From NCBI GenBank assembly GCA_944331715.1, contig CALVIP010000001.1:11067-75066 (forward strand): a DNA stretch of 64,000 bases. Reading direction: 5' to 3'. This document shows positions 34,736 through 58,846 of the stretch, piece by piece (position 1 is the stretch's first letter; each line of letters opens with the position of its first letter). The notes below the pieces were generated by a model, which saw nothing but the letters and a program-made list of their open reading frames with translations, did no database searches and was not told the origin of the DNA. The DNA is from an uncultured Bacilli bacterium (lineage in GTDB: Bacteria > Bacillota_I > Bacilli_A > RF39 > UBA660). The position numbers were made by a program, and so were the translations under genes.

Positions 34736-34897
34736 TTCTATCACCTTCCTACATTATATTATATTAAATAAATGTAAAAAAAATACAATTAATTTTATTT
34801 AAATGTATTTTTTTTACACTATTATACATTGTTTTCAATATATGTCAATATTCAAAAAGAAATAATCATAACTTCTCATTATATACACACTATATAT

Positions 34898-37285: not shown

Positions 37286-37289
37286 TTTA

Positions 37290-37808
37290 TCACCCACTAA
37301 CTTTTTGCTTATTATATTCCCTACATTTTTCTTCTAATAAAGGAAAATTGCAACATCTATCCCTAACATTTTTAGGTAATTTATCAGCTTTATATAAATT
37401 ATACAATAACTTAGATTTAGTATTAATAACTTTTTTATTAGCAGTTAACCATCTAAGTTGATTTCTAAGTAGTTCTATTCTAAACATCTCACTATTTTCA
37501 TTAGCCTTTTTATCCAAATCAAATTCAACATAATTATTACTAGTAATTGGAATCATATTATTAAAATTAACTACACCAAGTTCACCATTATTTATTTTAA
37601 TTAAATCTAAAGTGTTTCTTAAACTTTTATGCTTTGGCTTTGGTGAAGATAAAGGAGCAAAGTACTCACACTTACCTATCGTAAATAATACACCTATAAA
37701 AGGTCTTAAATCTTTTGTACCTGCATTATATGAAACCTTATTATCATATTTTCTCAAATAATCACAATAAAGAGAATCAACTTTTACTATTCTTAATTTT
37801 TTATACAT
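37290..37808 (-). CDS. toxN: type III toxin-antitoxin system ToxN/AbiQ-family endoribonuclease
   Basis: SD GGAGGTG precedes the ATG at 37808. RPFIGVLFTIGKCEYFAPLSSPKPKH...NFNNMIPI...CNFPLLEEKCREY closely parallels ToxN (…YLAPLTSPKKWH…CNFSLLEEKYRDF) as I remember it. Confidence 0.85.
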   Translation of the reverse strand: MYKKLRIVKVDSLYCDYLRKYDNKVSYNAGTKDLRPFIGVLFTIGKCEYFAPLSSPKPKHKSLRNTLDLIKINNGELGVVNFNNMIPITSNNYVEFDLDKKANENSEMFRIELLRNQLRWLTANKKVINTKSKLLYNLYKADKLPKNVRDRCCNFPLLEEKCREYNKQKVSG

Positions 37809-37923
37809 AAGCACCTCCATCTAAATCAATTTTTCTTATTTATTTCTTTTATAAATTAGTGTACTATAGAGAATATATGTTCGTCAATATATAAATTTAA
37901 ATATTTTATCATACAAAATAAAA

Positions 37924-37945
37924 GATTAGAGTTTGCTCTCTAACC
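37924..37945 (-). terminator. hairpin plus U-run separating the repeat RNA from toxN
   Basis: Minus strand UUAGAG-6nt-CUCUAA (37943-37926), followed by UCUUUUAUUUUGU. Confidence 0.5.
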
Positions 37946-37947
37946 TA

Positions 37948-38066
37948 CTTTTTTAACTGCCATTTATAGAGCTGGCTTCACTCACTTTTTTAGCTGCCAT
38001 TTATAGAGCTGGCTTCACTCGCTTTTTTAGCTGCCATTTAAGGCTGGCTTCACCTGCTTTTTTAAT
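37948..38066 (-). ncRNA. toxI: ToxI/antiQ-like antitoxin RNA: 3 full plus 1 partial tandem repeats (37, 37, 35 nt)
   Basis: Units on the plus strand: 37948-37984 CTTTTTTAACTGCCATTTATAGAGCTGGCTTCACTCA; 37985-38021 CTTTTTTAGCTGCCATTTATAGAGCTGGCTTCACTCG; 38022-38056 CTTTTTTAGCTGCCATTTAAGGCTGGCTTCACCTG; then CTTTTTTAAT. They lie directly upstream (minus strand) of the terminator and toxN. Confidence 0.8.
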
Positions 38067-39672: not shown

Positions 39673-39794
39673 ATAAATAACTTCATCATATTTACTTTTT
39701 GGTATCTTTCTAATTAAATTATTAACAATATCTAATATTTCTTGTTTTTCTCTATTTTTAAGTTCATCATTTACTTTTTTTTAAAAATTCACTA

Positions 39795-42152
39795 CTATTC
39801 ATAACTTCCCTCACTAACTATTTCATATCCTAACTTTTCATAGGTACTCTTTCTTTTTAAAAACATATTTCTTGTCTTAGCAAAGTTATCATCAACATAA
39901 TCATATATTAATATCTCTTTTTTATTTTCATTTTTTCTATGAAGTCTTCCTGCATATTGTATAACTCTAGTCTTACCTGATATCGGCATAGTAAGAAACA
40001 AAACATCTAATTTATCATCATCAAATCCTTCTCCTATATATGAGCCTGTAGAAATTATAATCTTATTACTATTATTTAGAGTTATTTCATCATTTAATTC
40101 TTTATACTTTTTAAGAACTTTCTTACCTATACCTCCATAATATTTAAAAATATTACTAGTATACTTACTTAGTTTATCATAAATATAATCTAAATGTTCT
40201 AATCTTTCCGTTAATACTAAAATATTCTTACCATTAAGATACTCTTTTTTAATATCTTTAATTATACTTTCACTTCTTAAAATATCTTTTGCTATAAAAT
40301 CATTTATTTCATTTAACTCATAATTATCTATTTTAGGATCAGTAAAATTCAAATGACTTTTTCTAACAATTACTTTCATAGGGATATTTAACTCTTTATT
40401 GAATTTTAAAGTATCTACCTTATACCTAATATCACCACATTGCATTTTTATAATAGGTGTATGGCCATTTTCTCTTTCAGGTGTTGCAGATATTCCATAG
40501 ACATATTTAGCATTTCCTGTATTTATAGCTTGTTCAAAAGTATAAGCAGCAGTATGATGACATTCATCTATAATAATCATTCCATAATTTTTAGCAATAT
40601 CTAAAACATCTCCATTATTCCATAAAGATTTTATACTAGCAACATCTATTATATTAGTAATATTTTTCTTTTTACCACTTATCTCTCCTACTTCATCTAT
40701 ATTAAGAAAATCTTTAATTCTATCTTTCCACTGTTCAAGTAATTGAAGTTTATTAACAAGTATTAAAGTATTTACTTTTCTTTCTTCTATCAGTTTACAT
40801 CCTATAACTGTTTTACCGAATCCCGTTGGAGCACAAAGTATTCCATTATCATATTTAAGGAGTTTATCTAAAGCAAGTTGTTGTTCTTCTCTTAATTTAC
40901 CGTTAAAGCTAACTGTAATTTTTTTACCTTCACTTCTCTTATCTGTTTTAATTATTTTTATATTATTAGTTTTACAAAGATTTTCTAAATATTCATAAGT
41001 ACCTCTCGGTAACTTTAAATACTTATCATCTTCTTTACTACAGTCAATTACCATAGGCACATTATAAACGGACATTCTTAAGCTTTGTTTTTTATAAAAC
41101 TCTGGATTAGCAAAAGTAGCAAGCCTTCTAAAACTATTTTTAACAATTGAATTTAATCCTGCTTTATCAATATAGACCATATCATTTAATATTACTTTTA
41201 TACTTTTAGGATAGTCAATTTTATTTTTACTTTTAGTTAAAACTTCTTTATTCATATTAACTATCTCATGTCCTATATCTATAGTTTCATTACTTAATTT
41301 TTCTATTGTTTCAAGTACTTCACTCTCTGTTAATTTATGAATAGACTTTAAATATTCTAATTGATTTTCCACTTTCATAAAGTTTCTATCAATAAATATT
41401 GTATTACCATATTTAGAAGGTTCATTTTGAAAAGGCAAAGCTATTAAATTTCCATAACCTCCTTTAGGTAGGGTATCTTGATTAGGAAACATTCTATCAA
41501 AAGAAGATATAGATAAATTACTTATTTCCATAGTTTTAGATAATAACAAACTTCCTAATTTCCTTGCTATTATTGCTTTTATATTAGTAGAAAAGAAAAT
41601 CCATATATGTATTCCATTACCCGATCTACTTCTTTCTAATACAGCAGGTATTTTGTATTCATCACATATATTAAGAAATGCAAGAACTTCTTCTTTAATG
41701 TCATTATCACTATTTTTATTATCAAAATCTAAAGCTAAAAAATAACAAGTATCGTCAGTTAGTAAAGGATAAATTCCTATAGGTTTATTTTCATACATAT
41801 GCTTATAAATAACTTCTTTTGATAATGGTTCATTTTCTCTATATTGACAAGTTTTACATTTCTTACCCATAGTTTTATTACAAACACCTTTTTTCCATTC
41901 ATTTAGACAAGCAGGGATATAATATTTAATATTAGGATTTTCTTTATTAATAGATAAATATGGATATACATCATCTCTACCTTTAAAATAGCTCATAAAT
42001 ATTTTAACTTTTTCTTCTCTTGATAAAGATGATACTTCTTCCTTACTATCTAAAACATTAAGCATTGCTTTTAATTCATTTAGTTCGTTTTTAATATTAT
42101 TTATTGCAATTTCTTTTTCTTTAATTTTATTAATTATTTGATCTCTATTCAT
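39795..42152 (-). CDS. archaeo-eukaryotic primase (PrimPol)-like domain fused to an SF2 ResIII/DEAH-box helicase
   Basis: 785 aa. Coiled coil aa 1-40. Cys cluster C82/C91/C99/C102. AEP motifs LALDFD (139-144), SGNGIHIW (177-184), SFDRMFPNQD (217-226). Helicase motifs APTGFGKT (441-448), IIDECHH (527-533), SATPER (555-560), QYAGRLHR. SD GGGGAG upstream. Confidence 0.8.
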   Translation of the reverse strand: MNRDQIINKIKEKEIAINNIKNELNELKAMLNVLDSKEEVSSLSREEKVKIFMSYFKGRDDVYPYLSINKENPNIKYYIPACLNEWKKGVCNKTMGKKCKTCQYRENEPLSKEVIYKHMYENKPIGIYPLLTDDTCYFLALDFDNKNSDNDIKEEVLAFLNICDEYKIPAVLERSRSGNGIHIWIFFSTNIKAIIARKLGSLLLSKTMEISNLSISSFDRMFPNQDTLPKGGYGNLIALPFQNEPSKYGNTIFIDRNFMKVENQLEYLKSIHKLTESEVLETIEKLSNETIDIGHEIVNMNKEVLTKSKNKIDYPKSIKVILNDMVYIDKAGLNSIVKNSFRRLATFANPEFYKKQSLRMSVYNVPMVIDCSKEDDKYLKLPRGTYEYLENLCKTNNIKIIKTDKRSEGKKITVSFNGKLREEQQLALDKLLKYDNGILCAPTGFGKTVIGCKLIEERKVNTLILVNKLQLLEQWKDRIKDFLNIDEVGEISGKKKNITNIIDVASIKSLWNNGDVLDIAKNYGMIIIDECHHTAAYTFEQAINTGNAKYVYGISATPERENGHTPIIKMQCGDIRYKVDTLKFNKELNIPMKVIVRKSHLNFTDPKIDNYELNEINDFIAKDILRSESIIKDIKKEYLNGKNILVLTERLEHLDYIYDKLSKYTSNIFKYYGGIGKKVLKKYKELNDEITLNNSNKIIISTGSYIGEGFDDDKLDVLFLTMPISGKTRVIQYAGRLHRKNENKKEILIYDYVDDNFAKTRNMFLKRKSTYEKLGYEIVSEGSYE

Positions 42153-42181
42153 ATTGACTCCCCTTTTAATATTTGACGTAT

Positions 42182-42210
42182 ATTCTAATATTTTTTATAA
42201 GGAAAGTCAA
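42182..42210 (-). promoter_or_regulatory. sigma-A-type promoter of the PrimPol-helicase operon
   Basis: Minus strand TTGACT (42210-42205), 17 nt, TAGAAT (42187-42182). Confidence 0.5.
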
Positions 42211-42282
42211 TGAAAAAGATGGCAATAATTACCAACTCTAATTTCAAATTATTCTAATTCTTTTAATCTTTTATCTACTTCA

Positions 42283-42942
42283 TCAAAAAAAACTATAGAC
42301 TGTTGTACAACTTTCTGAATTCGATGGTGTATCTTTAATATGATTTAAATGAATGTTTTTTGCATACTTACGAACTTGTTCTAAAGAACCATATTTAGTT
42401 AATCTATGAAATATTTTCTCATCATTTTTTCTATATCTATATTTTGAACCTTTTGCCTTAAAGTATTCATTTAACTTGCTTTCATAAGATTTTCTATCCA
42501 TACCAGTATCTATATAATTAAAATATAGTAAAAACCAATACTCAATAGCTTGGTTAGACCACAAAGGAATATACCCATTTCTTTCACACATTTCTATTGC
42601 TTTATTAAATGATTCACTACTAAAACTATCTTTATCAAATACAACAAATATTTTTCCATAAGGTATTGTAGAAATTTTATATTCATCTATTTCGTTCAAT
42701 ATATCTTGAGTAGATTTTACTAAAGATGTCGTATTCATTCCCATACCTACTATTTTCACTTTTAACTTATAATCATCTTCTATCAATTCATTAATAGCTG
42801 CAACCGCTCCTTCAAAATAGTTAGGTTCTGTTTCTTTACCTTCACAAACTATAAGCCAATTACTAGATTTTTGTTTTCTAATATTTTCTTTTCTTTTATT
42901 TCTTTCTGCTCTTCGTTTTTTAAATAAATCATCACTACCCAT
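42283..42942 (-). CDS. RloB-like protein (AbiLi-type Toprim-like partner)
   Basis: LIVCEGKETEPNYFEG, VVFDKDSF, IPLWSNQAIEYWFLLYF. ATG lies 5 nt after the ATPase stop. Confidence 0.75.
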   Translation of the reverse strand: MGSDDLFKKRRAERNKRKENIRKQKSSNWLIVCEGKETEPNYFEGAVAAINELIEDDYKLKVKIVGMGMNTTSLVKSTQDILNEIDEYKISTIPYGKIFVVFDKDSFSSESFNKAIEMCERNGYIPLWSNQAIEYWFLLYFNYIDTGMDRKSYESKLNEYFKAKGSKYRYRKNDEKIFHRLTKYGSLEQVRKYAKNIHLNHIKDTPSNSESCTTVYSFF

Positions 42943-42949
42943 AATTCAC

Positions 42950-44155
42950 CTACTTATCTTCGTATGGAATAGCACCAAACTTTCCAGTTAAATATCTCTT
43001 CTCATAATCAGCATCTACTCTTAAATTTCTAAATTCTGATAATGAATATAATCTAGCTTTCCCATATTTGTCTTTTTCTACTAAATAAAGTTCATCTCTT
43101 CTTAAATCATCACTATTGAATAAAAAAGTTGAATGAGCTGTATAAATTAATTGAGCATTATTTTTATTTATTTTTTTATCTTTATACATATTAACAATTT
43201 TTTTAAATAATAACGGATGAAATTTGACATCTAACTCATCAATACATAATAACCCACCATTTTCTAAATTATTTAAAATAGTTGGCATGATATTAAATAT
43301 TTTAATAGTACCATCAGATTCATATTGTAATGGTAGTAATATATGATTTTTATTATCAATATTTTTATGTACTCCACTAAGCTTATAAGATTTATTTTCT
43401 CCACTATCACTAATCTCATCAATTTTAATACCTAATAAACAAGGATCAAATTCATTAATTATTTGTTGAAATCTTTCGTATAGTAAATTATTTTGAGATA
43501 AAAGATTAATACTTGTTTGAGGTTGAAAAACACTTTCTACTCTAAAATCAAACTTATTAATATAATTATAAATATCTCTTAAAATTCCCTTTTCTTCTTT
43601 AATCGCTACATTACTTAAAATTAATAATTTATTTGTACTTAAATTAACATTATCACTAAAAAGATTCCAAGTCTTTTCATAATTAGCATAAGAAGAACCA
43701 AAATTAACCAAGTCTTTATTTCTTTCAAAAATAATTTTTTGAGTTGCTTTAGTAGTAGAAGAAAATTTCTTTTTATATAGCCACTCCTCATCAAAGCCAT
43801 CTTTATTCATTGAAAATCCATATCTATATTCATAATCACCAAGAGAAATTGAAATTTCAAATTCACTATTTTCATTTCTAGCATTATTACTAAATGCAAA
43901 AGAAAATGTAGGTAAATCTTTATTAATATCTATTCTATTTGACATTTTAATAGTTTCAAACATAAAATGTAATGCCTCAAGTGCACTACTTTTACCAGAA
44001 GCATTCGCACCATGAATTTCTATAACTGGTAAAATTTTATTTCCATTAATATCAATTGTGGAATTAATGTGTCTTTTTTCCCAAGTTGCCATTAAATCCA
44101 AAACTGTCTCATCATAAAAACATTTATAATTTTTAAATTTAAATTGCAATAACAT
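42950..44155 (-). CDS. AAA_21-type (ABC-like) ATPase, AbiLii-type
   Basis: Walker A GANASGKSS, Walker B LLCIDELDVKFH, IYTAHSTFLF. SD AGGAAGGTG precedes the ATG at 44155. Confidence 0.75.
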   Translation of the reverse strand: MLLQFKFKNYKCFYDETVLDLMATWEKRHINSTIDINGNKILPVIEIHGANASGKSSALEALHFMFETIKMSNRIDINKDLPTFSFAFSNNARNENSEFEISISLGDYEYRYGFSMNKDGFDEEWLYKKKFSSTTKATQKIIFERNKDLVNFGSSYANYEKTWNLFSDNVNLSTNKLLILSNVAIKEEKGILRDIYNYINKFDFRVESVFQPQTSINLLSQNNLLYERFQQIINEFDPCLLGIKIDEISDSGENKSYKLSGVHKNIDNKNHILLPLQYESDGTIKIFNIMPTILNNLENGGLLCIDELDVKFHPLLFKKIVNMYKDKKINKNNAQLIYTAHSTFLFNSDDLRRDELYLVEKDKYGKARLYSLSEFRNLRVDADYEKRYLTGKFGAIPYEDK

Positions 44156-44345
44156 AATTAACACCTTCCTTTTGGCTATATTTTATCACTTTTTCATATT
44201 TTTGCAATATTTTAGGAGATTTTTTCTCTTAAAGTGTATTATTTCTTTTATATTTTATGCAATTTGTTTAATTATATGCATGTAAAATATATATACAAAT
44301 ATATTAATTCATAAAAAAACAGAACTGCTTCCAACTAAAACAATT

Positions 44346-45200
44346 CTATTTTTTATAAGCTTTCTCATTTTTACTTATTATTTCAGAATAAATATTTTCT
44401 ATCTTTTCTAATTCATTAAATTGTTCTTTAGGAGCATTTCTATTTACCATATCATTTTTAATCTTATTTATTCTTACATCATAATTAAGACAAATTTGAT
44501 CATTACTTTCATCTCTTAAGTCTTGCAATAAAGATAAATAATTATCAAGAGCCACAGGAATAGTTTTAAACTCTTTATCTATTGGTACAATATAATTTAC
44601 TTTTATACCAAGAAACAAACACTTAAAAATAAAGTCAGGTAATAAGTCATAACATTTATTATGTGTCTCTATATTTGATAATTTGGCAGTCTTACTTGAA
44701 AGTATTTCTTTTTCGTATCTTTCCCTTGTTGCAAGTAAACTTGCTAAATTTCCTCTTACCACTACATTTATAACAATATCATAATTTTTAGGTATATTAC
44801 TTATTAAGTCTATTAAACTATAATCAATTGGAGCTTTCTCCCTCAATACAGAATAACCATTTTGTATAGCATAAGAAAATAGTTCATCTCCCCATAAATG
44901 AGCATCAAAATTTGTAAGAGTTGCATAATCTGTTGGATATTTATCTAATATTTCTTTAGAGTACTTATGAAATTGACGATAATTATCAGAATTTATAATT
45001 ATATAATTAGATAAATTTGTACTATCTATATATGTAGTTTTTCCACAACCAGGTTGTCCAACTACAAACATAATAGATGAATTATTTTGAAGAGATTTAT
45101 TTACAAATAAATTTTCTTTAAGTTGTTCTAAAACTATTCTATGCTCATCTTCGAATAATTTATATTTTTCAATATTATCTTTTAATGTTTTGTTTTTCAA
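44346..45200 (-). CDS. zeta-toxin-family P-loop kinase-like protein with a ~80-aa C-terminal helical extension
   Basis: VVGQPGCGKTTY...IINSDNYRQFHKY (zeta-toxin-like Walker A plus the xDxxR region). SD AAGGAG lies 9 nt before TTG 45200. Confidence 0.6.
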   Translation of the reverse strand: MKNKTLKDNIEKYKLFEDEHRIVLEQLKENLFVNKSLQNNSSIMFVVGQPGCGKTTYIDSTNLSNYIIINSDNYRQFHKYSKEILDKYPTDYATLTNFDAHLWGDELFSYAIQNGYSVLREKAPIDYSLIDLISNIPKNYDIVINVVVRGNLASLLATRERYEKEILSSKTAKLSNIETHNKCYDLLPDFIFKCLFLGIKVNYIVPIDKEFKTIPVALDNYLSLLQDLRDESNDQICLNYDVRINKIKNDMVNRNAPKEQFNELEKIENIYSEIISKNEKAYKK

Positions 45201-45252
45201 TATTAACAACTCCTTCGTTTAACTATATTATACTATACAATTAATTAAACAC

Positions 45253-45288
45253 AAACAAAAAGCGGAGCCATAAGGCTCCTTCAGGGGG
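45253..45288 (-). terminator. rho-independent terminator with a conserved CCCCCUGAAG 5' flank
   Basis: Minus strand CCCCCUGAAG-GAGCC-uuau-GGCUC-CGCUUUUUGUUUG. Confidence 0.6.
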
Positions 45289-45403
45289 AAATATTATTAT
45301 CAGTTCGTAACAATTTAATAATTTGTTAAAGTCTTACAAAATAAGGCTTTTTCTTTTATCATAATTTACCAAAGTTTATAAAAATAACTTTATTTTTGTG
45401 GTT

Positions 45404-45432
45404 TAGTATCTAATTTTGGTATCTAGAAAAAT
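45404..45432. repeat. att-associated repeats (TAGTATCTA, TGGTATCTA) including a 16-mer shared with 54763-54778
   Basis: TTGGTATCTAGAAAAA at 45416-45431 is identical to 54763-54778. Confidence 0.6.
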
Positions 45433-45445
45433 AATCATAATTTAA

Positions 45446-48400
45446 TCATTTTTTTCGATTATAAACCATTATTTTATTTCTCTTTGTTAAAACAAACGAT
45501 GAAATAACATTTTCTGATTTTAATTTTTGCAATATCTCTAATAAATTTTGATCAACATCTATTGAAAAATTATTGTTACCAACTCCTATATAATCAAAAC
45601 CATTATTAATCATACATAAATAGTTGTTAGTTACTTCAATATTTATTTCTTCCTTGATTTTGTTTAAATAAGAATATTTTTTACTATCTTCAATATTAGA
45701 ACTAAAGATTAAGTCATTAGAAACATCACTTCTTAAATTATATTTATCATCATATGCAAGGTTAAATAATAATTCAACGTTTAGCATTGTATTTTTTATA
45801 ACTTCATTTTCAAACAATATTGATTTAATATCTTCATCTAACTCTATATTTTCAACTAATTCATTTGCTATATCTTCTATATCAAAATCATCACAATTTT
45901 CAATATAGTATTCTTTATTTAAATTAATAAATAAAACTAATAAGTCTAATGATTTACTCTTAATATAATTAAAATTATCTAAAGTTAATTCTAAAATATT
46001 ATTAGTAATGATTATTTTTAATTTATCATACTTATATTCAAAATTTATATTTTCTAAGTTTGAAATTTTACAATCAAAAGAATTTATGCTTTTTTCTAAA
46101 GTATTTAAGCTAATATACTTGTTATTTATTAAATTTACTAAAAAATCTTTTGGATTATCCAATAAGTCTACATATTCTATACTATCAATATTATTAATAA
46201 TACCAGCTAACTTTTCTGAAATATCTTTTATAAAATTATATAAACATATTACATTATTCCAATTATTATCAATTAAATCATTATTCAAAACGCATTCATA
46301 ATAATCACTAGATATTTTGCCTAAATCTTTTATTTTAGTTTTTTCCTTAATAATAATTTTATTTTTAATATTATCATCAATATTATCGTTATTAAGTATA
46401 TTCAATATAACATCTTCATCATTGCTTTGGTTATCTAATTTATCATAAACGCAATCAACATATAAATCAAAATTATCGTATATATTTTTTTTCATAATAT
46501 TTAATCTTTCATCTTCTATAATTGTTAAAAACTTATTTGAAAATTGTTCGCTTGAATTAATAGTATTTTCTAACAATAATTTCAACATATTTTCATTGAT
46601 TTCATATAAATTGTTTTTTAATATAAAATCAGAAAATTCTTTAGTACAATTTTCATCAATATTTTTAAATTTTATATTTTGTTTAATTATGGTTTCTTTA
46701 TGATTGTCATCTAACAGGGAAAAAAGGTTATAAAATTTATTATGCATACTAATATAACTAATAAATGTATTATCTGTATTTAATAAAAATTTAGGATTAC
46801 TTAGAAATATTTTTACCCATTTGTCAATATAATCTCTATTTTTACTATTTTTCAAATAACATTTTTCCCATATATTATTTTTCTTCAGCAATAAACTATT
46901 TATAAAAGATTTGCTTAGTTCACTTTTTTCTAAATAACTATCTATAAAGTCTAATTTTTCATCTGTAATGATTTCAAACTGTAATAAAATTTTATTTTTT
47001 ACACTTGATTCAACTTTGTTTTTATTATCAAATATATAATCAAACAAGTCGAAATTCAATATACTATCTGATGAATAGTCAAATATATCTAATCTATTAA
47101 CAATTTCATTTAAATTATCTAAATGGTAAGAATAATTTTCCATTTTACTATCCTTCTTTACATTTTTTACAAACTGCATATCTTGGATAGTTAAATTTCC
47201 CTCTTTAAACAATGTAATGTAATCATAATAATCACTAGAGACAAGACCACGTTTTAAAATAAACATTTCAAAATCGTTTAATTCTTCAGTTATAATGTCA
47301 ATACCATATTTCTCAATTAGTTCTTTGAGTGACATTTCTTTTATAGCTCTAATATTTTTTTCTATCAAAGTAATTTCTTTTTGTTTTTCTTCAATAACGG
47401 CTTCTTTATCACCATTTAAATTATCTAATCTTTCTATATAAGAACGTTTTCCTCCAAAAACATCAAAAATTTGTTCCTCGTTAAAATTAGCATAAGGGTA
47501 ACTACGTTTATCAAACGTCATTTTTGTATTTTTAATTTTGTCTATATCAAAATCATCTCTTAAAAATTCAGAAACATTACATTCTGCGTTATTGAAGTTT
47601 AATTTATAATTATTAAGAGTATCACTAGATAGTTTAACTAAGTTCATTATTAATACTTGTTTTAATTCAAGTACATTTAATAATTTTTCGTTTTGAATGT
47701 TATCAATTTCAGTTTGTAAATTGTCATTATCTAATTTTAATTTTTCTGTTAGTTTATTTATAATTTCGTTTTTATTTTGAATTATATTTGGTAGTGTTCC
47801 TTCTCCCTTTAACATCAATGCATATTTTTGAGGATATAAATTTTTATAAAAAAGCATTGCCATTAACTTACAATTATCTAAATCTTTATCAATAAATTTA
47901 TCACTAAATAAAATAAAATCAGCCATTATATTATTTATTGTTCTCATATCATCAACAAATATAGATATATTATTAATAAACTTTTTATCTATCTCATAAT
48001 ACATTTCATTTTCTTGTTCACCATATATGCTCTTAAATTTATCCCATATTATTTCATTTGAATTTGATAATGAAGATACAGGAATAATAGGAATAGTTTT
48101 ATCAAAAAATTTGGTTCTTTCAGTATTTTTCTCAAAAAAATCATCTTTTATTGCATAAATAAAACTTATTTTTCTTTTAATTCTTGAACAAGTATTTAAT
48201 AAATAATTTAGTTCTTTTAGCTTTTCAATAATAAATAATGCTTCATTAAATCTATCAATATCTTCAAAAATTACAACATTATAATCAGAGCACTGAAAAA
48301 AGTAAATAATTTCGTCCAAATATTTGTTAAATATCGACTCTGTTTTCCCATTTATTTCTATTTCAGCATCCTTGTATTTTAATTTACTTATATAAAAATT

Positions 48401-49057
48401 GTCTTTAATGAACTCACGTATTTTATAAATACAGAAAGCAAAAAACGTAACTATTATTCCATATAATAAACTAGTAAATAAATAATTTATATAAATATTA
48501 ATTGATTTTACTTTAAAATTTAAAACCTTTAACACTTCGTTAATATTATTGTATGGTTCAAAAAATCCTTCAAAGAAATTAGGAGCAAAAATAAATAAGC
48601 AAATTAAAACAATCAAAACAAACACAAAAGTTTCAATAAACATATCAGATTTTGAATATTTTGTAAGTCTCTTAAATCTTGATTGCGGAACTTTTTCTTG
48701 ATCTGTTTGATATAGTAATTGTTGCAAAATACTTTTTTCTATTGTTTGATGATATTCTTCTGCTTTTCTTTTTCCAATATTTTCATTATTTTTTCCATAA
48801 GAACCTAGAGTTATATTTATATATTTTCTTTTATTTTTAAAATAAGTTTTTAAAAAACTACTTTTACCAGCACCATAATTCCCAAATATTGCAATATTAT
48901 GTATATCCTCATTTTCTAAACTATAATCTAATATTTCTGAATATTCGTCGATATCAGTTGCGTTTGATGTTGGAGCTAAATTAATAAAATCCTGATAGTT
49001 ATCTACCTTTTTTAATTTTTTCACTTCGTTCACTTCCTTACTACTAAAAAACGCCAA
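45446..49057 (-). CDS. KAP-family P-loop NTPase with TM helices inserted in the NTPase domain (YobI-like, ~1200 aa)
   Basis: Walker A GNYGAGKSS (aa 59-67). Two hydrophobic helices (aa ~140-160 and ~193-212). Walker B VVIFEDIDRF (261-270). About 900 aa of helical C-terminal region. The ORF-track start is TTG 49057; GTG 49024 behind AAGGAAG is a better candidate. Confidence 0.7.
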   Translation of the reverse strand: MAFFSSKEVNEVKKLKKVDNYQDFINLAPTSNATDIDEYSEILDYSLENEDIHNIAIFGNYGAGKSSFLKTYFKNKRKYINITLGSYGKNNENIGKRKAEEYHQTIEKSILQQLLYQTDQEKVPQSRFKRLTKYSKSDMFIETFVFVLIVLICLFIFAPNFFEGFFEPYNNINEVLKVLNFKVKSINIYINYLFTSLLYGIIVTFFAFCIYKIREFIKDNFYISKLKYKDAEIEINGKTESIFNKYLDEIIYFFQCSDYNVVIFEDIDRFNEALFIIEKLKELNYLLNTCSRIKRKISFIYAIKDDFFEKNTERTKFFDKTIPIIPVSSLSNSNEIIWDKFKSIYGEQENEMYYEIDKKFINNISIFVDDMRTINNIMADFILFSDKFIDKDLDNCKLMAMLFYKNLYPQKYALMLKGEGTLPNIIQNKNEIINKLTEKLKLDNDNLQTEIDNIQNEKLLNVLELKQVLIMNLVKLSSDTLNNYKLNFNNAECNVSEFLRDDFDIDKIKNTKMTFDKRSYPYANFNEEQIFDVFGGKRSYIERLDNLNGDKEAVIEEKQKEITLIEKNIRAIKEMSLKELIEKYGIDIITEELNDFEMFILKRGLVSSDYYDYITLFKEGNLTIQDMQFVKNVKKDSKMENYSYHLDNLNEIVNRLDIFDYSSDSILNFDLFDYIFDNKNKVESSVKNKILLQFEIITDEKLDFIDSYLEKSELSKSFINSLLLKKNNIWEKCYLKNSKNRDYIDKWVKIFLSNPKFLLNTDNTFISYISMHNKFYNLFSLLDDNHKETIIKQNIKFKNIDENCTKEFSDFILKNNLYEINENMLKLLLENTINSSEQFSNKFLTIIEDERLNIMKKNIYDNFDLYVDCVYDKLDNQSNDEDVILNILNNDNIDDNIKNKIIIKEKTKIKDLGKISSDYYECVLNNDLIDNNWNNVICLYNFIKDISEKLAGIINNIDSIEYVDLLDNPKDFLVNLINNKYISLNTLEKSINSFDCKISNLENINFEYKYDKLKIIITNNILELTLDNFNYIKSKSLDLLVLFINLNKEYYIENCDDFDIEDIANELVENIELDEDIKSILFENEVIKNTMLNVELLFNLAYDDKYNLRSDVSNDLIFSSNIEDSKKYSYLNKIKEEINIEVTNNYLCMINNGFDYIGVGNNNFSIDVDQNLLEILQKLKSENVISSFVLTKRNKIMVYNRKK

Positions 49058-49212
49058 TACAAAAACTTATATAACATAAGCCTGTACTAGCGCTTCCCTT
49101 TTATATATACTATTATAGCATAAATACTATTATTTTTATTATTAACTGACGCAATGACACACTTATTGTGAGTACCCTACACGCATTTATAGTGTCATAG
49201 TGTCATCTACTA

Positions 49213-49761
49213 TTACTCAAATATTATTTTTTCATTCTCATCAATAAATATTGCTTGATTATTTGTTAAATATATATCATCATTAGAATTAATTACTCCA
49301 TTAGGTGTTCCTTTATCTGAGTGTACATCTAATATATTTTCAATAAATCCAAGTCCATCTTTATATTTTCCACTAGCACAAACACTACCTGCACTAACGC
49401 CAATATAAATACCACCATTTTCTATATATTTATCTATAACTGGTTTTATATTTAATTCTTTAATTCTATCAACTAAATACTTTGTACTTCCTCCACAAAC
49501 ATATATTGCATCATATTTATTAATCTCTTCTTGTGATATTAATTTATGCATATCATAAACTGTTATATTATTATCTGTAATACCACATTTAGTTAAATCA
49601 TCTAAACATCCTGATAGTATTCTAACTGCATCTGGATCATTAGCTGCTGTTATTATAAAAAGTATTTTAGCATCTTTTACATCTACGTTTAATAATTCTA
49701 TAAATTTATTCATTATATTTTCATTATCAAAACCAGTACTTGTTAAAAGTATTTTTTTCAT
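49213..49761 (-). CDS. S51 (peptidase E)-fold / class I glutamine-amidotransferase-like hydrolase
   Basis: 182 aa. IYVCGGSTKYL and nucleophile elbow GVSAGS. TAATG overlap with the upstream gene. Confidence 0.65.
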   Translation of the reverse strand: MKKILLTSTGFDNENIMNKFIELLNVDVKDAKILFIITAANDPDAVRILSGCLDDLTKCGITDNNITVYDMHKLISQEEINKYDAIYVCGGSTKYLVDRIKELNIKPVIDKYIENGGIYIGVSAGSVCASGKYKDGLGFIENILDVHSDKGTPNGVINSNDDIYLTNNQAIFIDENEKIIFE

Positions 49762-50222
49762 TACTTCACCTTCTTATTTTCATTTTGAACTTCAACATAC
49801 ATTGTTGGTATGTTTGATTTTTTAATTTCTTCCTCTATTTTTTGTTGCATATTTTTAGCATTACTAAAGTCAGTATTTCTTAATTTAGTTCTTTCAAGTA
49901 ATAAATCATCATTAATATGTAGATACACTATCAAATCACAGTCCAATAAAACAGTTCCAAACATCGGTGTACCATGTTTAATACTTAATTTTGTCCTAAC
50001 AAGTTCATCCATCTTATTTCCTATTTCTTGAGTCCAAGGTGTTCTACAAACATATTCTGTTTCTTCTTCAGTTAGTAATGGAAATATTTCTTCATCCATG
50101 TCTAATCCTATATTTGTACCTTTTATTAAAGTTGTCTTACCTGTACAAGTAGCTCCTAAAACACATATTCTTTTGTCTCTATTTTCTTCAAATATTTCAA
50201 TTAATTGTTCTATATTAGACAT
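49761..50222 (-). CDS. small P-loop NTPase / nucleotide-kinase-like protein
   Basis: 153 aa. Walker A GATCTGKTT at aa 23-31. Confidence 0.55.
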   Translation of the reverse strand: MSNIEQLIEIFEENRDKRICVLGATCTGKTTLIKGTNIGLDMDEEIFPLLTEEETEYVCRTPWTQEIGNKMDELVRTKLSIKHGTPMFGTVLLDCDLIVYLHINDDLLLERTKLRNTDFSNAKNMQQKIEEEIKKSNIPTMYVEVQNENKKVK

Positions 50223-50271
50223 TTAAATCACCTACTTTTCTTTTTTATATTCTTCAACTTTCTTGTGATTA

Positions 50272-50958
50272 TTAAAGTTTGTTATTTAATTCATTTAAAT
50301 ACTTATTCATATAAAATGCTGTCTTATCTTTATTGTATTGCATTATATATCTTGGGTGTTCAAGAGCAACGATTCTTTTAAAATAGTGATTTTCTTCATT
50401 TAACTTCAATAAATATTGATAATTTTCTCCACTACCTATACAATAACATACTTCTCTGTTAATACCTATCTTTATAAGTTCATCTAAAGATTTTTTAATA
50501 AAATCATTTAGATAACTTTGTAATTTTCTGTTCTCATAATAATTAACATTGACTTCGTTATTTTTATTATTTATATTAACTATTCCTAGTGGACATACAA
50601 ATCCCAAAAAGAAATCACTATAAAATTTATCTATACCGCCATAGTTTTCCATAACATCATATAAAAAATTACTAGAATTCTTATTAATATAAAAATTATT
50701 TATACTTTCTCCAGTTAGTTTATATATATGTTCTTCATCTTCAAAAGGTATTCCAGTAGCAGATGTTCCTCTTCTCGCTGGTGATGCCCCCAATATCAAA
50801 TATCTATTATGATTATCATCAAAGTACTTATTATAGAATACCTCTACTATTTTTATTATCCTTTCCTGCTTATATGGATTAACAATTTTATATTTATCAA
50901 ATAATTCAATATTTTGTAAAGAAAGCCATTTATAATAATCAATAATTTTTTTGTTCAT
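50272..50958 (-). CDS. uracil-DNA glycosylase superfamily protein (SMUG2/DUF4918-like)
   Basis: LILGASPARRGTSATGIPFED (motif A-like, GxxPxxxGxxxTGIPF) and VALEHPRYIMQY (motif B-like HP). Confidence 0.55.
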   Translation of the reverse strand: MNKKIIDYYKWLSLQNIELFDKYKIVNPYKQERIIKIVEVFYNKYFDDNHNRYLILGASPARRGTSATGIPFEDEEHIYKLTGESINNFYINKNSSNFLYDVMENYGGIDKFYSDFFLGFVCPLGIVNINNKNNEVNVNYYENRKLQSYLNDFIKKSLDELIKIGINREVCYCIGSGENYQYLLKLNEENHYFKRIVALEHPRYIMQYNKDKTAFYMNKYLNELNNKL

Positions 50959-50959
50959 A

Positions 50960-51307
50960 TTATTCCCATGTTCTTTCTAAGTTAATTGTTTCTTTTCTTT
51001 TTAAGGCATCTAATAAATCAATATTATACTTATCTGCAATAGTTAATACATATATAAATACATCTGCTAATTCATCTTTTATATTTGAACTATATTTTTT
51101 ATTTATATCCATTTCCATGTTAGATTCATGTTTCCTTATTTCTTTTGCTAGCTCACCAACTTCTTCAGTTAAATAACATAATAATTCTAATGGAGTATTA
51201 TTATAATTATTTTCCTTAAGCATACATTTTATATAGTTTTGAATATCAGACATATTACTTGTTTCATTAAGTTTATTTAATTCTTCTCTTATTTTATCTT
51301 TTGTCAT
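50960..51307 (-). CDS. MazG-type all-alpha nucleoside-triphosphate pyrophosphohydrolase
   Basis: 115 aa. TEEVGELAKEIRK ... DELADVFIYVLTIADKYNIDL (ExxE...ExxD metal sites). Confidence 0.75.
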   Translation of the reverse strand: MTKDKIREELNKLNETSNMSDIQNYIKCMLKENNYNNTPLELLCYLTEEVGELAKEIRKHESNMEMDINKKYSSNIKDELADVFIYVLTIADKYNIDLLDALKRKETINLERTWE

Positions 51308-51380
51308 CTTTTACTCCTCACTTAATATCGCTTCTATTTCATATATTACTTTAGATAATTTATATTTTTTATTTTATAAA

Positions 51381-51914
51381 TCAATTACTTTTTGGTAATT
51401 TATCATAATCATACTTTTTTTCTGCTTCTTCCAATTCATCAAAAGCATATTTTATATCTTCAATAGCTTTATCAATTGTATATAAGCTGTCTTTATTATC
51501 TTTCATAATTTGTAAATGTTCCATAATATAAAATAATTTTTGTCTTGCATCACTTACTTTTCTTCTTTTTTGAGTATCAAAATCTAGCAATTCTAATTCA
51601 GATTCTTTGTATTTTTCAATTAATTCTTTTAAATCTTTGCTAGATTTATCAATATATTTGTCTTTACTCTTATGTGCATGAAAATACAAAGACATTTCAT
51701 CATATCCTGCTGCCTTTAATAGTTTCTGCAATGACATATCTAAAGTTTCAGCAATTTTACGTAGATCATCAATATCTACTTTTTTTATTTTCCCATTAAT
51801 TAAATCATTTAAAGTACTTCTACTAATACCAGTTAATTTAGCAAGTTCTCTTTGTGAAATACCTTTTGCCTCTCTAGCTGATTCAATTAAAATTTTAAGT
51901 TCTTCTGAGTTCAT
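51381..51914 (-). CDS. XRE/CI-like repressor of the integrative element
   Basis: ISQRELAKLTGISRSTLNDLINGK HTH. Probable start is the ATG at 51914. Divergent from the plus-strand module. Confidence 0.75.
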   Translation of the reverse strand: MNSEELKILIESAREAKGISQRELAKLTGISRSTLNDLINGKIKKVDIDDLRKIAETLDMSLQKLLKAAGYDEMSLYFHAHKSKDKYIDKSSKDLKELIEKYKESELELLDFDTQKRRKVSDARQKLFYIMEHLQIMKDNKDSLYTIDKAIEDIKYAFDELEEAEKKYDYDKLPKSN

Positions 51915-52002
51915 AATAACACTTCTTTCTTCCCTTTTTTCTCTCAACAATTTAATTTTAACATGTTTTTGTTTAAATGTCTAGTTTTTCGGTCAAACTG
52001 TA

Positions 52003-52058
52003 TTGACAATATTTCCGGACAGTGTTATATTTGAAATGTCCTTAATATCGGACACTAT
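52003..52058 (+). promoter_or_regulatory. rightward promoter with GGACA/TGTCC operator half-sites
   Basis: TTGACA (52003-52008), 17 nt, TATATT (52026-52031). CCGGACAGTG lies in the spacer. TGTCC-ttaatatc-GGACA at 52037-52054. A related TTCGGTCAAACTG lies upstream. Confidence 0.5.
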
Positions 52059-52078
52059 AAGGAAAGGAGGTTAAGAAT

Positions 52079-52339
52079 ATGAGATTGTTTAAGAAAGATA
52101 ATATAAATGATTACATAATTCCTAAAGATTTATCTATTGGAGCAACTGGTATGCTTAATTCATTATTAATCAGAACTAATGATGAACTTGAAAATACTGA
52201 TCTCTACTCTCTTAGTAATGATAGTAGAAAAGATGTTGCATTAGCATTTAGAGAATTAAGAAAGAAAAAATATATTATCTATAATTCATTAGATGATACA
52301 TATTACGTTTATGTATCACCACAAAAAAAAATAATATGA
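52079..52339 (+). CDS. hypothetical protein (86 aa), first gene of the rightward module
   Basis: Strong SD AAAGGAGG 8 nt upstream. Confidence 0.55.
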   Translation: MRLFKKDNINDYIIPKDLSIGATGMLNSLLIRTNDELENTDLYSLSNDSRKDVALAFRELRKKKYIIYNSLDDTYYVYVSPQKKII

Positions 52340-52354
52340 AAGGAGGAAAAATAT

Positions 52355-52606
52355 ATGTCTGCAGAAGAAACATTAAAATTAATAGCTAAGCAATGGTGCA
52401 CCCTAGAAGATATTATGAATCTTGGTCATCTTGGTAGGAATTCTGCACTAAAGGCTAAAAAGAAAATAAAAGACAAATTAGAAAAACAAGGTTATCTTAT
52501 TCCAAAGTCTGTTGTTCCAACTAAAGAAGTTGTAGCATTCTTTGATATAGATATACCTTATTTAGAATCTAGAGTTTCTAGTAAAGAATTAATTAAAAAT
52601 ATGTAA
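52355..52606 (+). CDS. hypothetical small protein (83 aa; possibly DNA-binding/excisionase-like)
   Basis: Strong SD AAAGGAGG. The position is typical of xis-like genes, but no motif was verified. Confidence 0.5.
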   Translation: MSAEETLKLIAKQWCTLEDIMNLGHLGRNSALKAKKKIKDKLEKQGYLIPKSVVPTKEVVAFFDIDIPYLESRVSSKELIKNM

Positions 52607-52621
52607 GAAAGGAGATACAAA

Positions 52622-53365
52622 TTGAAACAGATAAATGAATTAAATAAAAGCATAAAAAAAGATATCATCGTCGAAAACCTAATGATATCAAATGGAGTTT
52701 ATCTACTTGTATCTCATCCTAAGGTTGGCAAGTCAATGTTTGCTCAGCAACTTGCCTTCTCTCTTACTACTGGAGAAGATTTTTTAGGATTCAAAGTAAA
52801 TCCCTCTCATGTCTTATATATTACCACAGAGGGCGATATAAATCAATTAAATGACCGATTTAAATTGATGAAATTGAAACCTAACGTAAATAAACTACAC
52901 ATTATAGATATAGATGATATTCCAGATTTTTATATCAGAGATATTGAAAGAGATATTCATGAATTAACCTTTGATAAGGAACCTTTAGTTATAATAATAG
53001 ATATGTTTAAAGATATTAAATTTGATACTAGTTATGATTTAAACAATTATCAAGAAATTAATGATGTTGTATTTAAAAAATTAAAAGAACTATGCAGAAA
53101 ATATAATGCTACTTTACTTGTTACACATCACTTAAATAAAAGAGACGAAACTATGGGTAGTGTTGGATTAAATGCTGATGTATCAGGAATTATGAAATTA
53201 AAAGAATCTAAAAACAATTATAATAAACTAACTTTAGATTATAAAGGCAGAGATTTAGGTAGATTAGAATTAAATTTAAAAAGAAATGAAAATCAAACTT
53301 TTAGTGTTATAGATGAAAATACTGATGATGAAACCGATTATAATCTACTACTATTTATAAAATAG
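52622..53365 (+). CDS. RecA-fold AAA_25/RepA-like ATPase (replication/primase-helicase loader type); 3' end defined by the IS junction
   Basis: Walker A SHPKVGKSM, Walker B IIIIDMFKD, LLVTHHLNKRDE. TTG start behind AGGAG. The stop codon TAG (53363-53365) is built from IS terminal bases. Confidence 0.6.
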   Translation: MKQINELNKSIKKDIIVENLMISNGVYLLVSHPKVGKSMFAQQLAFSLTTGEDFLGFKVNPSHVLYITTEGDINQLNDRFKLMKLKPNVNKLHIIDIDDIPDFYIRDIERDIHELTFDKEPLVIIIDMFKDIKFDTSYDLNNYQEINDVVFKKLKELCRKYNATLLVTHHLNKRDETMGSVGLNADVSGIMKLKESKNNYNKLTLDYKGRDLGRLELNLKRNENQTFSVIDENTDDETDYNLLLFIK

Positions 53366-54391
53366 AGTTGTTCGGAAACTAAATTTAGGCAATATCTAAA
53401 TTAAAAAGAGCACAAACCAAAACTGCAAAATATGCAAAATATTTTAAGTTGTTTCTAAATTTAGTACTAAGTATTTTAAATCTTTTAATCCAAGAATTTG
53501 TATGTTCAATATAAATTCTTTCTTTTGCTAATTCTTTATTATATTCTTCTTCTTTCTCTGTTAATGGATGTTTTTTAGATTTTTTATATGGTGTGTTACC
53601 ATTAGTAATTTTATTAATTCCAATATATCCCAAATCTGCTGTATAAGTAATATTATCGGGACTACCTTCAAATGTTCTTTTAAATAAATGAAAATCATGT
53701 TCTTTTCCAGGACCTATTTGTATTTCATAAATAAAACCAGTATTTTTACCTTTAATTATCTGTATTTTCATTGTGTGATAATGTTTTTTACCAGAATACT
53801 TATCTTTTTGATTATATTTTGGCCTTAAAATTCTTATCTCAGTTACATCTAAAAGTCTATCTTCTGATGAATCAAATTTTGTATGATTTTTACCAAATAA
53901 AGTAAAGTTTTTGTTTAATAATAATACTTCTAACACTTCATGAACATAATCACAAACAACACTTTTAGGAAGGTCAAATTGAATACCATAATCTTCCATA
54001 GCATTATAATTTTTTATGTATAAAAGAAGAACAATAACTTTTTCTCTAGATTTAAAATTGCTTGGTCTGCCACCTTTTTTATGTCTTTCTCTGTATGCAT
54101 TTTCTACTGCTTCAACCATAACATTAAAGTCTTCTCTTTTAATTCCCATTAATCTTTTAAATTTTTTATTAGTTAGCTTTGCTAATTTTTCTTCACTATA
54201 TTGATCCATTTTTATTCTTTTTACCTCAAAATAACCTTTATGGAACAACTATAGGAATCATTATTGGTTAAACATGATTAGTTGCTCCATAAAGGCTACT
54301 TTCTTAATTCCTACCTCATGTCTAACCAATATTAATTTATCACATTTTTATAATTTTGTTAACCCCTTTTTAGAGGTTTCCGAACAACTCT
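53364..54391 (-). mobile_element. IS5-superfamily (DDE_Tnp_4 / PIF-Harbinger-like) insertion sequence, 1028 bp
   Basis: 16-bp perfect terminal inverted repeats: AGAGTTGTTCGGAAAC (53364-53379) and GTTTCCGAACAACTCT (54376-54391). Flanked by AAT on both sides (53361-53363 and 54392-54394). Confidence 0.75.
53385..54248 (-). CDS. DDE transposase (HTH_Tnp_4 + DDE_Tnp_4 type)
   Basis: 287-aa ORF (probable start ATG 54209, MDQYSEEKLAKL...). GGRPSNF, LLDVTEIRILRP, ADLGYIG, RIYIEHTNSWIKRFKIL are typical of this family. Confidence 0.75.
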   Translation of the reverse strand: MFHKGYFEVKRIKMDQYSEEKLAKLTNKKFKRLMGIKREDFNVMVEAVENAYRERHKKGGRPSNFKSREKVIVLLLYIKNYNAMEDYGIQFDLPKSVVCDYVHEVLEVLLLNKNFTLFGKNHTKFDSSEDRLLDVTEIRILRPKYNQKDKYSGKKHYHTMKIQIIKGKNTGFIYEIQIGPGKEHDFHLFKRTFEGSPDNITYTADLGYIGINKITNGNTPYKKSKKHPLTEKEEEYNKELAKERIYIEHTNSWIKRFKILSTKFRNNLKYFAYFAVLVCALFNLDIA

Positions 54392-54706
54392 AATGGAAAA
54401 AAGAAGCACTATGGCTTCAATGACAAATGGTTTATCTTCGGTGAACACGAACCATTAACTTTCGGAATGATGTCTAGAATTAATGGTAGAATTGCTAAAA
54501 ATGCAGATATTCGAAGAATTCCACTACACTCTTTTAGACATAGTTGTGCATCTCTACTAATTAATACTGGACAACCTGTAACAACAGTATCTAAGTATTT
54601 AGGACATGCTAGTACTAAAGAAACATTAGATACCTATGCTCATATGTTTCCAAATAATCTTACTAATGTAAAAAATACCATAGATAATTTAAATCTAGGT
54701 ATTTAA
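54392..54706 (+). pseudogene. C-terminal ~100-aa fragment of a tyrosine recombinase/integrase
   Basis: The frame is open from the IS junction: ...RIPLHSFRHSCASLLINTGQPVTTVSKYLGHASTKETLDTYAHMF (box II with the HxxR, H and catalytic Y). The N-terminal ~270 aa are missing. Confidence 0.75.
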
Positions 54707-54728
54707 ATAAGCTTAAATAAAAAATAAA

Positions 54729-54778
54729 TTTGGTATCTGAAAAAAGATTTTTGGTATCTGGCTTGGTATCTAGAAAAA
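54729..54778. repeat. three direct TTGGTATCT repeats (arm-type integrase-site-like); the last is part of the 16-mer shared with 45416-45431
   Basis: TTGGTATCT at 54730-54738, 54751-54759 and 54763-54771, immediately downstream of the integrase fragment. Confidence 0.6.

Positions 54779-58140: not shown

Positions 58141-58846
<706 letters not shown>

Follow-up and report, generated by a model that had tools for sequence, protein, structure and literature searches.

The locus described here raises the question of whether four small and tightly packed genes behind the repressor of a mobile element form one enzymatic system, and of what use they are to the bacterium that carries them. They are found in a 64,000-nucleotide (nt) stretch of contig CALVIP010000001.1 from an uncultured Bacilli bacterium (the whole stretch is called the window below) and encode, in the order of transcription, a MazG-type nucleoside triphosphate (NTP) pyrophosphohydrolase, a SMUG2-family protein of the uracil-DNA glycosylase (UDG) superfamily, a P-loop protein and a Peptidase-S51 hydrolase. 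The original prediction, made from the sequence of the window, had read them as a single nucleotide- or base-directed module with a possible antiphage role. The four genes are instead two independent two-gene modules which travel together in an element lineage, neither of them being needed by the element, and the MazG-SMUG2 linkage is the only one among the cassette genes that is conserved across species.

The coordinates and junction sequences were re-read, and the four open reading frames (ORFs), their motifs and their junctions were as first described, as was the XRE repressor upstream, which lies 73 nt from MazG on the same strand. MazG and the glycosylase gene are separated by a 1-nt gap (TAAtATG), through which SMUG2 is translationally coupled to MazG. 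A 49-nt spacer with a ribosome-binding site then leads to the P-loop gene, which overlaps the S51 gene by 1 nt (TAATG). These are real genes and not chance ORFs, since each of them has hundreds of homologues and contigs assembled from four chicken-gut metatranscriptomes cover every junction. The related contigs belong to metagenome-assembled genomes of uncultured gut Bacilli or 'Tenericutes', and the G+C content of the window is about 25%. All four gene identities were likewise confirmed by Pfam matches and structure searches, which retrieved 5H0J (SMUG2) for the glycosylase, 3l4e for the S51 hydrolase, a kinase fold for the P-loop protein and small MazG entries for MazG.

The idea of one four-gene module did not withstand a test of the conservation of gene order. 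Cassette proteins at least 97% identical to one another occur across many contigs with differing cargo. In a variant with a UDG of 90% identity, MazG-UDG is followed by an ASCH gene, a gene encoding 166 amino acids (aa) and a Zeta toxin, ASCH replacing P-loop-S51, and in another of 82% identity UDG and P-loop are separated by a NUDIX gene; in locus L019 it is such a gene that stands between the two pairs. Relatives of 57% identity have the same element frame with MazG-UDG and without P-loop-S51, and locus L109 has that frame with P-loop-S51 and without MazG-UDG. MazG-UDG is found without the second pair in L009, L024, L049, L051 and others, P-loop-S51 occurs in a chromosomal context in L114 and L115, S51 stands alone in such a context in L113, and in L036 the pairs are 5.5 kb apart and in the opposite order. 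No fusions joining the two pairs were found, and P-loop and S51 were never fused to MazG or UDG. As either pair can stand alone, as they can be parted by a NUDIX gene and as no fusion joins them, the conserved unit is the pair and not the quartet.

The linkage of MazG to SMUG2 was counted in 80 species-representative SMUG2 loci. MazG immediately adjoins SMUG2 in 24 of them, being upstream in 21 (gaps of -10 to +63 nt) and downstream in three Eubacterium loci, where the genes overlap by 4 nt and the MazG is of the same subfamily. In L059 the partner of SMUG2 comes from a different MazG lineage, which makes two MazG lineages overall, and MazG-linked genes stand in at least three places of a neighbour-joining tree. 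Given that a genome has one or few MazG genes and that the linkage is frequent and found in both orders, we infer that this adjacency cannot be due to chance. A literature search on SMUG2 and on MazG, glycosylases and defence returned no description of a MazG-SMUG2 pair, but only predictions by DefensePredictor.

The MazG protein has a clear Pfam match (PF03819, E 1.3e-9, 38.6 bits against a cutoff of 22), and within the SMUG2-linked subfamily the residues of its EExxE...ExxD motif (E48, E49, E52, E79 and D82) do not vary. Its nearest PDB entries are distant and include 5ie9, 4qgp, the integron protein iMazG (2q5z/2q73), YpjD and DCTPP1. With the last three it shares a single MazG domain of about 100-120 aa and the EExxE/ExxD motif, and iMazG is also mobile cargo; the similarity to iMazG is however low (E 3e-5), and the MazG described here belongs to the SMUG2-linked subfamily.

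The glycosylase matches PF03167 (E 5e-12, 46.5 bits against a cutoff of 24.3), and its residues 4-223 match the SMUG2 structures 5H0J/5H0K of Pedobacter heparinus (E 1.6e-53). The Pedobacter enzyme is placed on the family 3 branch of the UDG superfamily and is the subject of an article by Pang and co-workers (2017, Biochem J), which PMC10776899 cites. A search of solved structures with E up to 1 returned SMUG2 only, and its homologues are labelled SMUG2/DUF4918 in the source databases. The protein resembles the Pedobacter enzyme over its full length, in size, in motif 2 (HPR(F/Y)), in the CPLG segment and in the UDG fold. Nevertheless the two differ in motif 1, which reads GASPARRG here and GINPGRFG in 5H0J (Asn to Ser and Gly to Ala), and in that the gene described here is coupled to MazG and borne on an island. 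The form G(A/S)SPAR, which departs from the GxNPG of SMUG2, is found across the whole Firmicute/Actinobacteria subfamily, whereas motif 2, LEHPR(F/Y), is kept (EHPRY here) and is invariant in 17 of 17 sequences and likewise in all three context groups. The Asn of motif 1 positions the catalytic water in SMUG enzymes, although family 5 UDGb enzymes lack this residue and yet are active. Because motif 1 lacks the Asn, the glycosylase is assigned to a distinct Firmicute/Actinobacteria SMUG2 subfamily.

The family is nearly absent from phages, with four unannotated Listeria records among 50,697 GenBank phages and none in IMG/VR, and the idea of a phage-derived genome-hygiene gene was dropped for this reason. 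It also has members at non-mobile chromosomal sites of Listeria, lactobacilli and Streptomyces, and in Listeria it adjoins SIR2.

In about 20 other species the same SMUG2 subfamily is part of a conserved same-strand cluster with other base-directed genes, in the order HhH-GPD glycosylase, 415-aa S-adenosylmethionine (SAM) methyltransferase, SMUG2 and a 264-aa nucleoside 2-deoxyribosyltransferase-like protein (Nuc_deoxyrib_tr). This cluster was seen in L063, L067, L072, L077 (5921-9565, as an example), L080, L083, L085 and about 14 other loci, whose hosts are mostly labelled as Lachnospiraceae or other Clostridia and in two cases as Alphaproteobacteria. It is another undescribed base-directed gene set.

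The P-loop protein carries the Walker A motif GATCTGKTT, receives a weak AAA_28 match and no MazG_C match from Pfam, and has the invariant residues K29, D41, D43, D96, R111 and R115. No sequence relatives of it were found in PDB. Its AlphaFold2 (AF2) model, with a predicted local distance difference test (pLDDT) score of 78, is closest in Foldseek to Fap7/AK6, gluconokinase, adenylate kinases and deoxynucleoside kinases, with a probability of 1.0 and template-modelling (TM) scores of only about 0.5-0.57. The protein has the features of a P-loop nucleoside/nucleotide kinase, namely Walker A, a Walker B-like Asp (D96), lid arginines (R111/R115) and a kinase fold. A 5-hydroxymethyldeoxyuridine (5-hmdU) DNA kinase or a deoxynucleoside monophosphate (dNMP) kinase was considered and rejected as its identity, a viral structure library having given generic kinases only. 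The family is tiny: 1.84 billion representatives include only 147 clusters of it. Some of its members are fused to a Ham1/ITPase house-cleaning domain, to a PNPOx-like domain plus ASCH, and to an isochorismatase-type hydrolase (P0361, P0363 and P0399 among the relatives listed). Several relatives of about 350 aa possess unassigned C-terminal domains that end in a helix-turn-helix (HTH)-like segment; these had been considered as a Rosetta-stone fusion of P-loop and S51, which was rejected as the C-terminal domains are other ones.

The S51 hydrolase has a Pfam match (PF03575, E 2e-16, 60.7 bits) that ends at residue 131 of 182, its C-terminal part being short and divergent. Its AF2 model (pLDDT 93) is best matched in Foldseek by 3l4e (Lmo0363, TM 0.75), followed by PepE and cyanophycinase, and with the invariant S123 of GVSAGS and H147 it has both the fold and the Ser/His of the S51 family. 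The fusions of the P-loop protein to Ham1/ITPase and ASCH, and the replacement of P-loop-S51 by ASCH in the 90%-identical variant, were counted for a nucleotide theme, and this second pair is probably also tied to the handling of non-canonical nucleotides.

The RNA runs containing the sequence came mostly from chicken gut, and one RNA contig of 2.36 kb spans positions 49171-51460, reaching from shortly beyond the stop codon of S51 to within the 3' end of XRE. No terminator-like sites were found from XRE to S51, and the gene that follows the cassette, encoding the NTPase Tmn, has its own promoter-like site (TTGCGT-17-TATAAT) in a 155-nt gap. For these reasons the cassette is part of the repressor-side unit, which is expressed during residence of the element, and the operon for replication, mobilisation and integration is divergent and separate from it.

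The explanation that we prefer, in which our confidence falls somewhat short of even, is that MazG and SMUG2 together filter out a non-canonical pyrimidine, constitutively and in two layers, and thereby form a barrier to phages whose DNA contains deoxyuridine (dU) or 5-substituted dU. Both enzymes would act on the same pyrimidine, for which dUTP/uracil or a 5-substituted uracil, such as 5-hydroxymethyluracil (5-hmU), is the likeliest candidate. Hydrolysis of the triphosphate by MazG would keep the base from being incorporated, and its excision from DNA by SMUG2 would leave abasic sites. In an uninfected cell this filter would be harmless, and hence no sensor or antitoxin would be needed; once a phage with a genome of such a base had entered, however, the phage DNA would be both starved and shredded, much as by Brig1 and Brig2. 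The pair is expressed from the transcription unit of the repressor during residence, as lambda rexAB is with cI. There too accessory genes stand directly behind the maintenance repressor, although the analogy is one of layout only, the carrier here being a mobilizable island and not a phage. Since both pairs are dispensable for the element and are expressed with the repressor, we argue that they benefit the host during residence and not the element during transfer.

Brig1 (PMC11078745) and Brig2 (bioRxiv 10.1101/2025.10.29.685425) are validated antiphage DNA glycosylases with a UDG fold. Like them, the glycosylase described here is a monofunctional member of the UDG superfamily with that fold and is located in a defence island or mobile element; an enzyme of this kind needs no sensor, as its substrate is present only in phage DNA. 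They are however single genes, whereas here the glycosylase is coupled to an NTP pyrophosphatase, and the likeness is by description and not by sequence. The combination of a dUTPase with a uracil-DNA glycosylase keeps uracil out of DNA in cells (dut/ung), and herpes- and poxviruses encode both enzymes. The pair has the same two-layer logic, in which the triphosphate is removed from the pool and the incorporated base is excised, and the MazG fold is common to dimeric dUTPases and the dCTPase DCTPP1. Unlike dut/ung, the genes here are translationally coupled and mobile, with a small MazG in place of trimeric Dut and SMUG2 in place of UNG. In the DefensePredictor report (PMC13092281, Fig. 6F and S12), systems made of MazG, MazG-C kinase, dUTPase, NMAD and UDG are predicted to be defensive, none of them being validated. 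These resemble the cassette in combining a UDG with a predicted nucleotide kinase and an NTP pyrophosphohydrolase as candidate defence, and they differ in coming from other taxa and in the MazG_C kinase, which the P-loop protein does not match; the comparison is with their description and not with their architecture.

The points counted for defence are thus the surrounding defence cargo, the company of SIR2 and HhH-GPD genes, the absence from phages, the validated Brig1 and Brig2 and the DefensePredictor candidates. In a survey of neighbours, for which mixed proteins were run through Pfam and PADLOC as a pseudo-alignment and which describes the mix of housekeeping and defence genes qualitatively and not as a statistic, MazG-linked loci of other species were found near MADS, AbiLi, type I methyltransferase and PDC-S05/S06/M49A genes. 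The antiphage role suggested by the original prediction is therefore plausible from its context, from the co-transcription with the repressor and from the Brig1/Brig2 precedents, but it gains nothing from the catalogue of known systems, as none of the four proteins matches PADLOC.

Several points weigh against the filter as a phage barrier. In the scan with PADLOC-DB v2.0.0 the UDG and MazG proteins matched no families, and the P-loop and S51 proteins gave chance-level matches only (E 0.006-0.01). The metatranscriptome contigs are without strand information and may include carried-over DNA. We know of no dU or hmU phage for these uncultured hosts. In addition, none of 80 distant MazG relatives (35-47% identity, from a metagenome collection without close relatives) was linked to SMUG2, so that the linkage is confined to a subfamily.

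The other contrary points also speak for the main rival explanation, in which MazG is a dUTPase-like house-cleaning enzyme, SMUG2 removes uracil or deaminated bases, and gut Bacilli with small genomes, which perhaps lack dut/ung, obtain both enzymes from the island, with no phage phenotype. We consider this possible, albeit unlikely. The solved SMUG2 relative, to which the match is so extensive, is an ordinary repair glycosylase; Pang and co-workers are said to have found in 2017 that it acts on uracil, hypoxanthine and xanthine. The active-site motifs of the MazG-linked SMUG2 are identical to those of the other groups and no specificity-determining residue differs, and for this reason there is no sign of a specialised pocket. 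The occurrence of the family in the non-mobile chromosomes mentioned above agrees with a repair function, as do the housekeeping genes (Mur ligase, FTHFS, BioB) that in other species are many of the neighbours of MazG-SMUG2, the plain repair gene Ogt-Tag on the same island, the strong conservation of the cassette compared with the fast-turnover cargo behind it, and the lack of a PADLOC match. On the other hand, sister elements lack one pair or the other, which makes the cassette accessory cargo, and the pair heads an element with defence cargo. Furthermore motif 1 departs from that of the characterised enzyme at both substituted positions, and SMUG2 is accompanied elsewhere by conflict-type genes, namely SIR2 and the HhH-GPD/methyltransferase/nucleoside deoxyribosyltransferase cluster.

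A single pathway in which MazG, SMUG2, the P-loop kinase and S51 all act on one nucleotide or base would agree with the co-transcription of the four genes, with their near-zero junctions, with their joint travel at 97% identity or more on many contigs and with the fusion of the P-loop protein elsewhere to a house-cleaning ITPase, which matches the MazG theme. It is nonetheless improbable in our opinion, given the loci in which the P-loop/S51 side (L109, L113-L115) or MazG-UDG (L009, L024, L049, L051) stands alone, the NUDIX gene between the pairs in L019, the distance and opposite order in L036 and the lack of fusions between P-loop and S51 or of either to MazG or UDG. A service to the element, by sanitising a single-stranded DNA (ssDNA) intermediate of transfer or replication or by countering nucleotide-directed defences of the recipient, could be argued from the MobV-type relaxase and AAA_25 replication ATPase of the family, with which the element passes through ssDNA prone to cytosine deamination, but this is very doubtful, as is the counter-defence or transfer-hygiene alternative of the original prediction, because the cassette lies in the repressor-side unit and not in the divergent operon and is expressed in resident populations, the related element L109 lacks MazG-UDG, and the cassette persists and is transcribed in immobilised remnants (this window, L116, L122 and L123).

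To return to the filter against dU and 5-substituted dU, its defensive action would extend glycosylase-based immunity, known from Brig1 and Brig2, to the SMUG2 branch of the UDG superfamily and to Gram-positive gut bacteria. It would also represent a new design, in which a pool-cleaning pyrophosphatase backs a glycosylase, and would give an experimental entry to the MazG/UDG candidates flagged by machine-learning screens. The wider proposal, that MazG-SMUG2 is a new two-enzyme system against phages with dU, 5-hmU or related thymidine-replacing bases, spread by the small mobilizable islands of gut Firmicutes, with P-loop-S51 as a second nucleotide-directed module, can be made only tentatively and is rather unlikely. 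The novelty is at most that of a variant of glycosylase-based defence, and otherwise that of mobile uracil avoidance; without a defensive role, the pair would document the spread of uracil-avoidance genes by small mobilizable islands among gut Bacilli with reduced genomes.

The setting was correctly recognised at the outset as a mobile element, and defence cargo (Tmn) is aboard. Intact sister elements encode an integrase (Int), Mob_Pre, AAA_25, orf83 and orf84 on one strand and, on the divergent side, XRE, MazG, UDG, P-loop, S51 and one variable cargo, so that, besides the backbone, they contain the four-gene cassette and a single slot for cargo (Table 1 gives the features of the window). The start of XRE is likely to be ATG 51914, which has a ribosome-binding site, and its orthologues in sister elements have 173-177 aa and the same position. 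The two sigma-70-like sites between the divergent units (minus strand, 51983-51955, 10/12 with TG; plus strand, 52003-52031, 11/12 with TG) are consensus matches only. The AAA_25 protein has 247 aa here compared with 316-327 aa in intact relatives, and the intact gene adjoins Mob_Pre and the integrase in L024, L109 and L117-L121. By this comparison the relaxase, the end of AAA_25 and most of the integrase were lost through the insertion of the insertion sequence (IS), which has immobilised the element. A 9-nt core, TTGGTATCT, is present in five copies in the window against 0.82 expected, all of them intergenic and on the plus strand; three lie beside the integrase remnant and the others at 45416, directly after Tmn, and at 39699. 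The same attachment site (att)-like core directly follows the variable cargo in L001, L002, L019, L117-L119, L121 and L123. As the core follows the cargo here and in the sister loci, we regard the region 45416-54778, beside recG, as a probable integrative mobilizable element of about 9.4 kb, represented in the window by a decayed member. The cargo after S51 in sister elements consists of proteins of 385 and 590 aa with DUF87, of 797 and 97 aa, or of 425 aa with RNase_T-BRCT, and Tmn occupies this slot here (PADLOC E 5.8e-63; YobI-ATPase E 1.3e-97). Whether or not the cassette is defensive, the element is a compact natural scaffold, with a backbone, a fixed cassette and a swappable defence slot closed by an att core, and can serve in the search for new defence genes of uncultured gut lineages.

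Table 1. Features of the cassette, of its element and of the adjoining island segment, in coordinates of the window.
Feature	Coordinates	Strand	Basis or remark
MazG-type all-alpha NTP pyrophosphohydrolase, 115 aa	50960..51307	-	opens MazG-SMUG2 pair; PF03819
SMUG2-family (DUF4918) UDG-superfamily DNA glycosylase, 228 aa	50272..50958	-	PF03167; 5H0J
Minimal P-loop protein, nucleoside/nucleotide-kinase fold, 153 aa	49761..50222	-	opens second pair; Walker A
Peptidase-S51 (PepE/cyanophycinase-fold) serine hydrolase, 182 aa	49213..49761	-	PF03575
XRE repressor, 177 aa from ATG 51914	51381..51914	-	HTH_3, E 1.5e-15; 73 nt upstream of MazG
Divergent promoter-like region, XRE versus replication/mobilisation genes	51955..52031	.	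two best sigma-70-like matches of the region
orf86, orf83 and C-terminally truncated AAA_25 replication-type ATPase	52079..53365	+	AAA_25, E 5e-25
IS transposase (DDE_Tnp_4/DDE_Tnp_1)	53385..54248	-	Pfam; occupies gap relative to intact sister elements
Tyrosine integrase remnant, C-terminal 79 aa	54467..54706	+	PF00589, E 2.9e-11, profile positions 115-169 only
att-like core TTGGTATCT, three copies, recG-side end	54730..54778 (core copies 54730-54771)	+	beside integrase remnant
att-like core TTGGTATCTAGAAAAA, cargo-side end	45416..45431	+	16-nt identity with 54763-54778
Tmn/YobI-type P-loop NTPase, 1203 aa	45446..49057	-	occupies single variable cargo slot; PADLOC Tmn, Pfam YobI-ATPase
Second island segment, without integrase	39699-45431		bounded by copies of TTGGTATCT
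Zeta-toxin-like kinase	44346-45209		second segment
RloB/AbiLi (AAA_21) pair	42283-44164		second segment
TOTE-type AEP primase and helicase	39795-42152		second segment
ToxN, type III toxin-antitoxin	37290-37820	-	PF13958, E 3e-44; locus 37290-38065

Two other arrangements were observed in related elements. In L001 (6516-7677), L107 and L110, genes for 239 and 119 aa without a Pfam match precede the cassette instead of XRE, and in this XRE-less lineage the 119-aa gene overlaps the start of MazG by 26 nt. In L110 (1-12549) the unit formed by the 239-aa and 119-aa genes, MazG, UDG, P-loop, S51, a GT28 glycosyltransferase and genes for 668 and 100 aa is tandemly repeated, which is either a tandem element array or an assembly artefact.

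The island lies between rarA/mgsA and recG, and the left 30 kb of the window are ordinary chromosome. Downstream of the cassette follow Tmn, the Zeta-like kinase, AbiLi-RloB, the TOTE primase-helicase and ToxN. The segment 39699-45431 looks like a second remnant, which would point to a tandem accretion of elements at the recG site. Ahead of ToxN a 37-nt repeat stands in 3.3 tandem copies (37947-38065), which look like a ToxI antitoxin RNA array; an Rfam scan of the window gave no match. An ORF of 502 aa without a Pfam match (38164-39672) is placed between ToxN and the TOTE gene. The gene adjoining ToxN on its other side (36203-37297) encodes the Ogt-Tag protein, a 364-aa fusion of O6-alkylguanine methyltransferase and 3-methyladenine glycosylase, and is followed by a nitroreductase and a glyoxalase-fold protein. 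At 32827-34744 an AAA_21 ATPase gene (390 aa) overlaps a 264-aa ORF without a match, and the two may be another two-gene defence candidate. Finally, a kilobase that is locally rich in G+C (0.36 compared with about 0.25) contains a 228-aa ORF (58160-58846) with collagen-like triple-helix repeats, flanked by recG on one side and by the gene for undecaprenyl-diphosphate synthase on the other.

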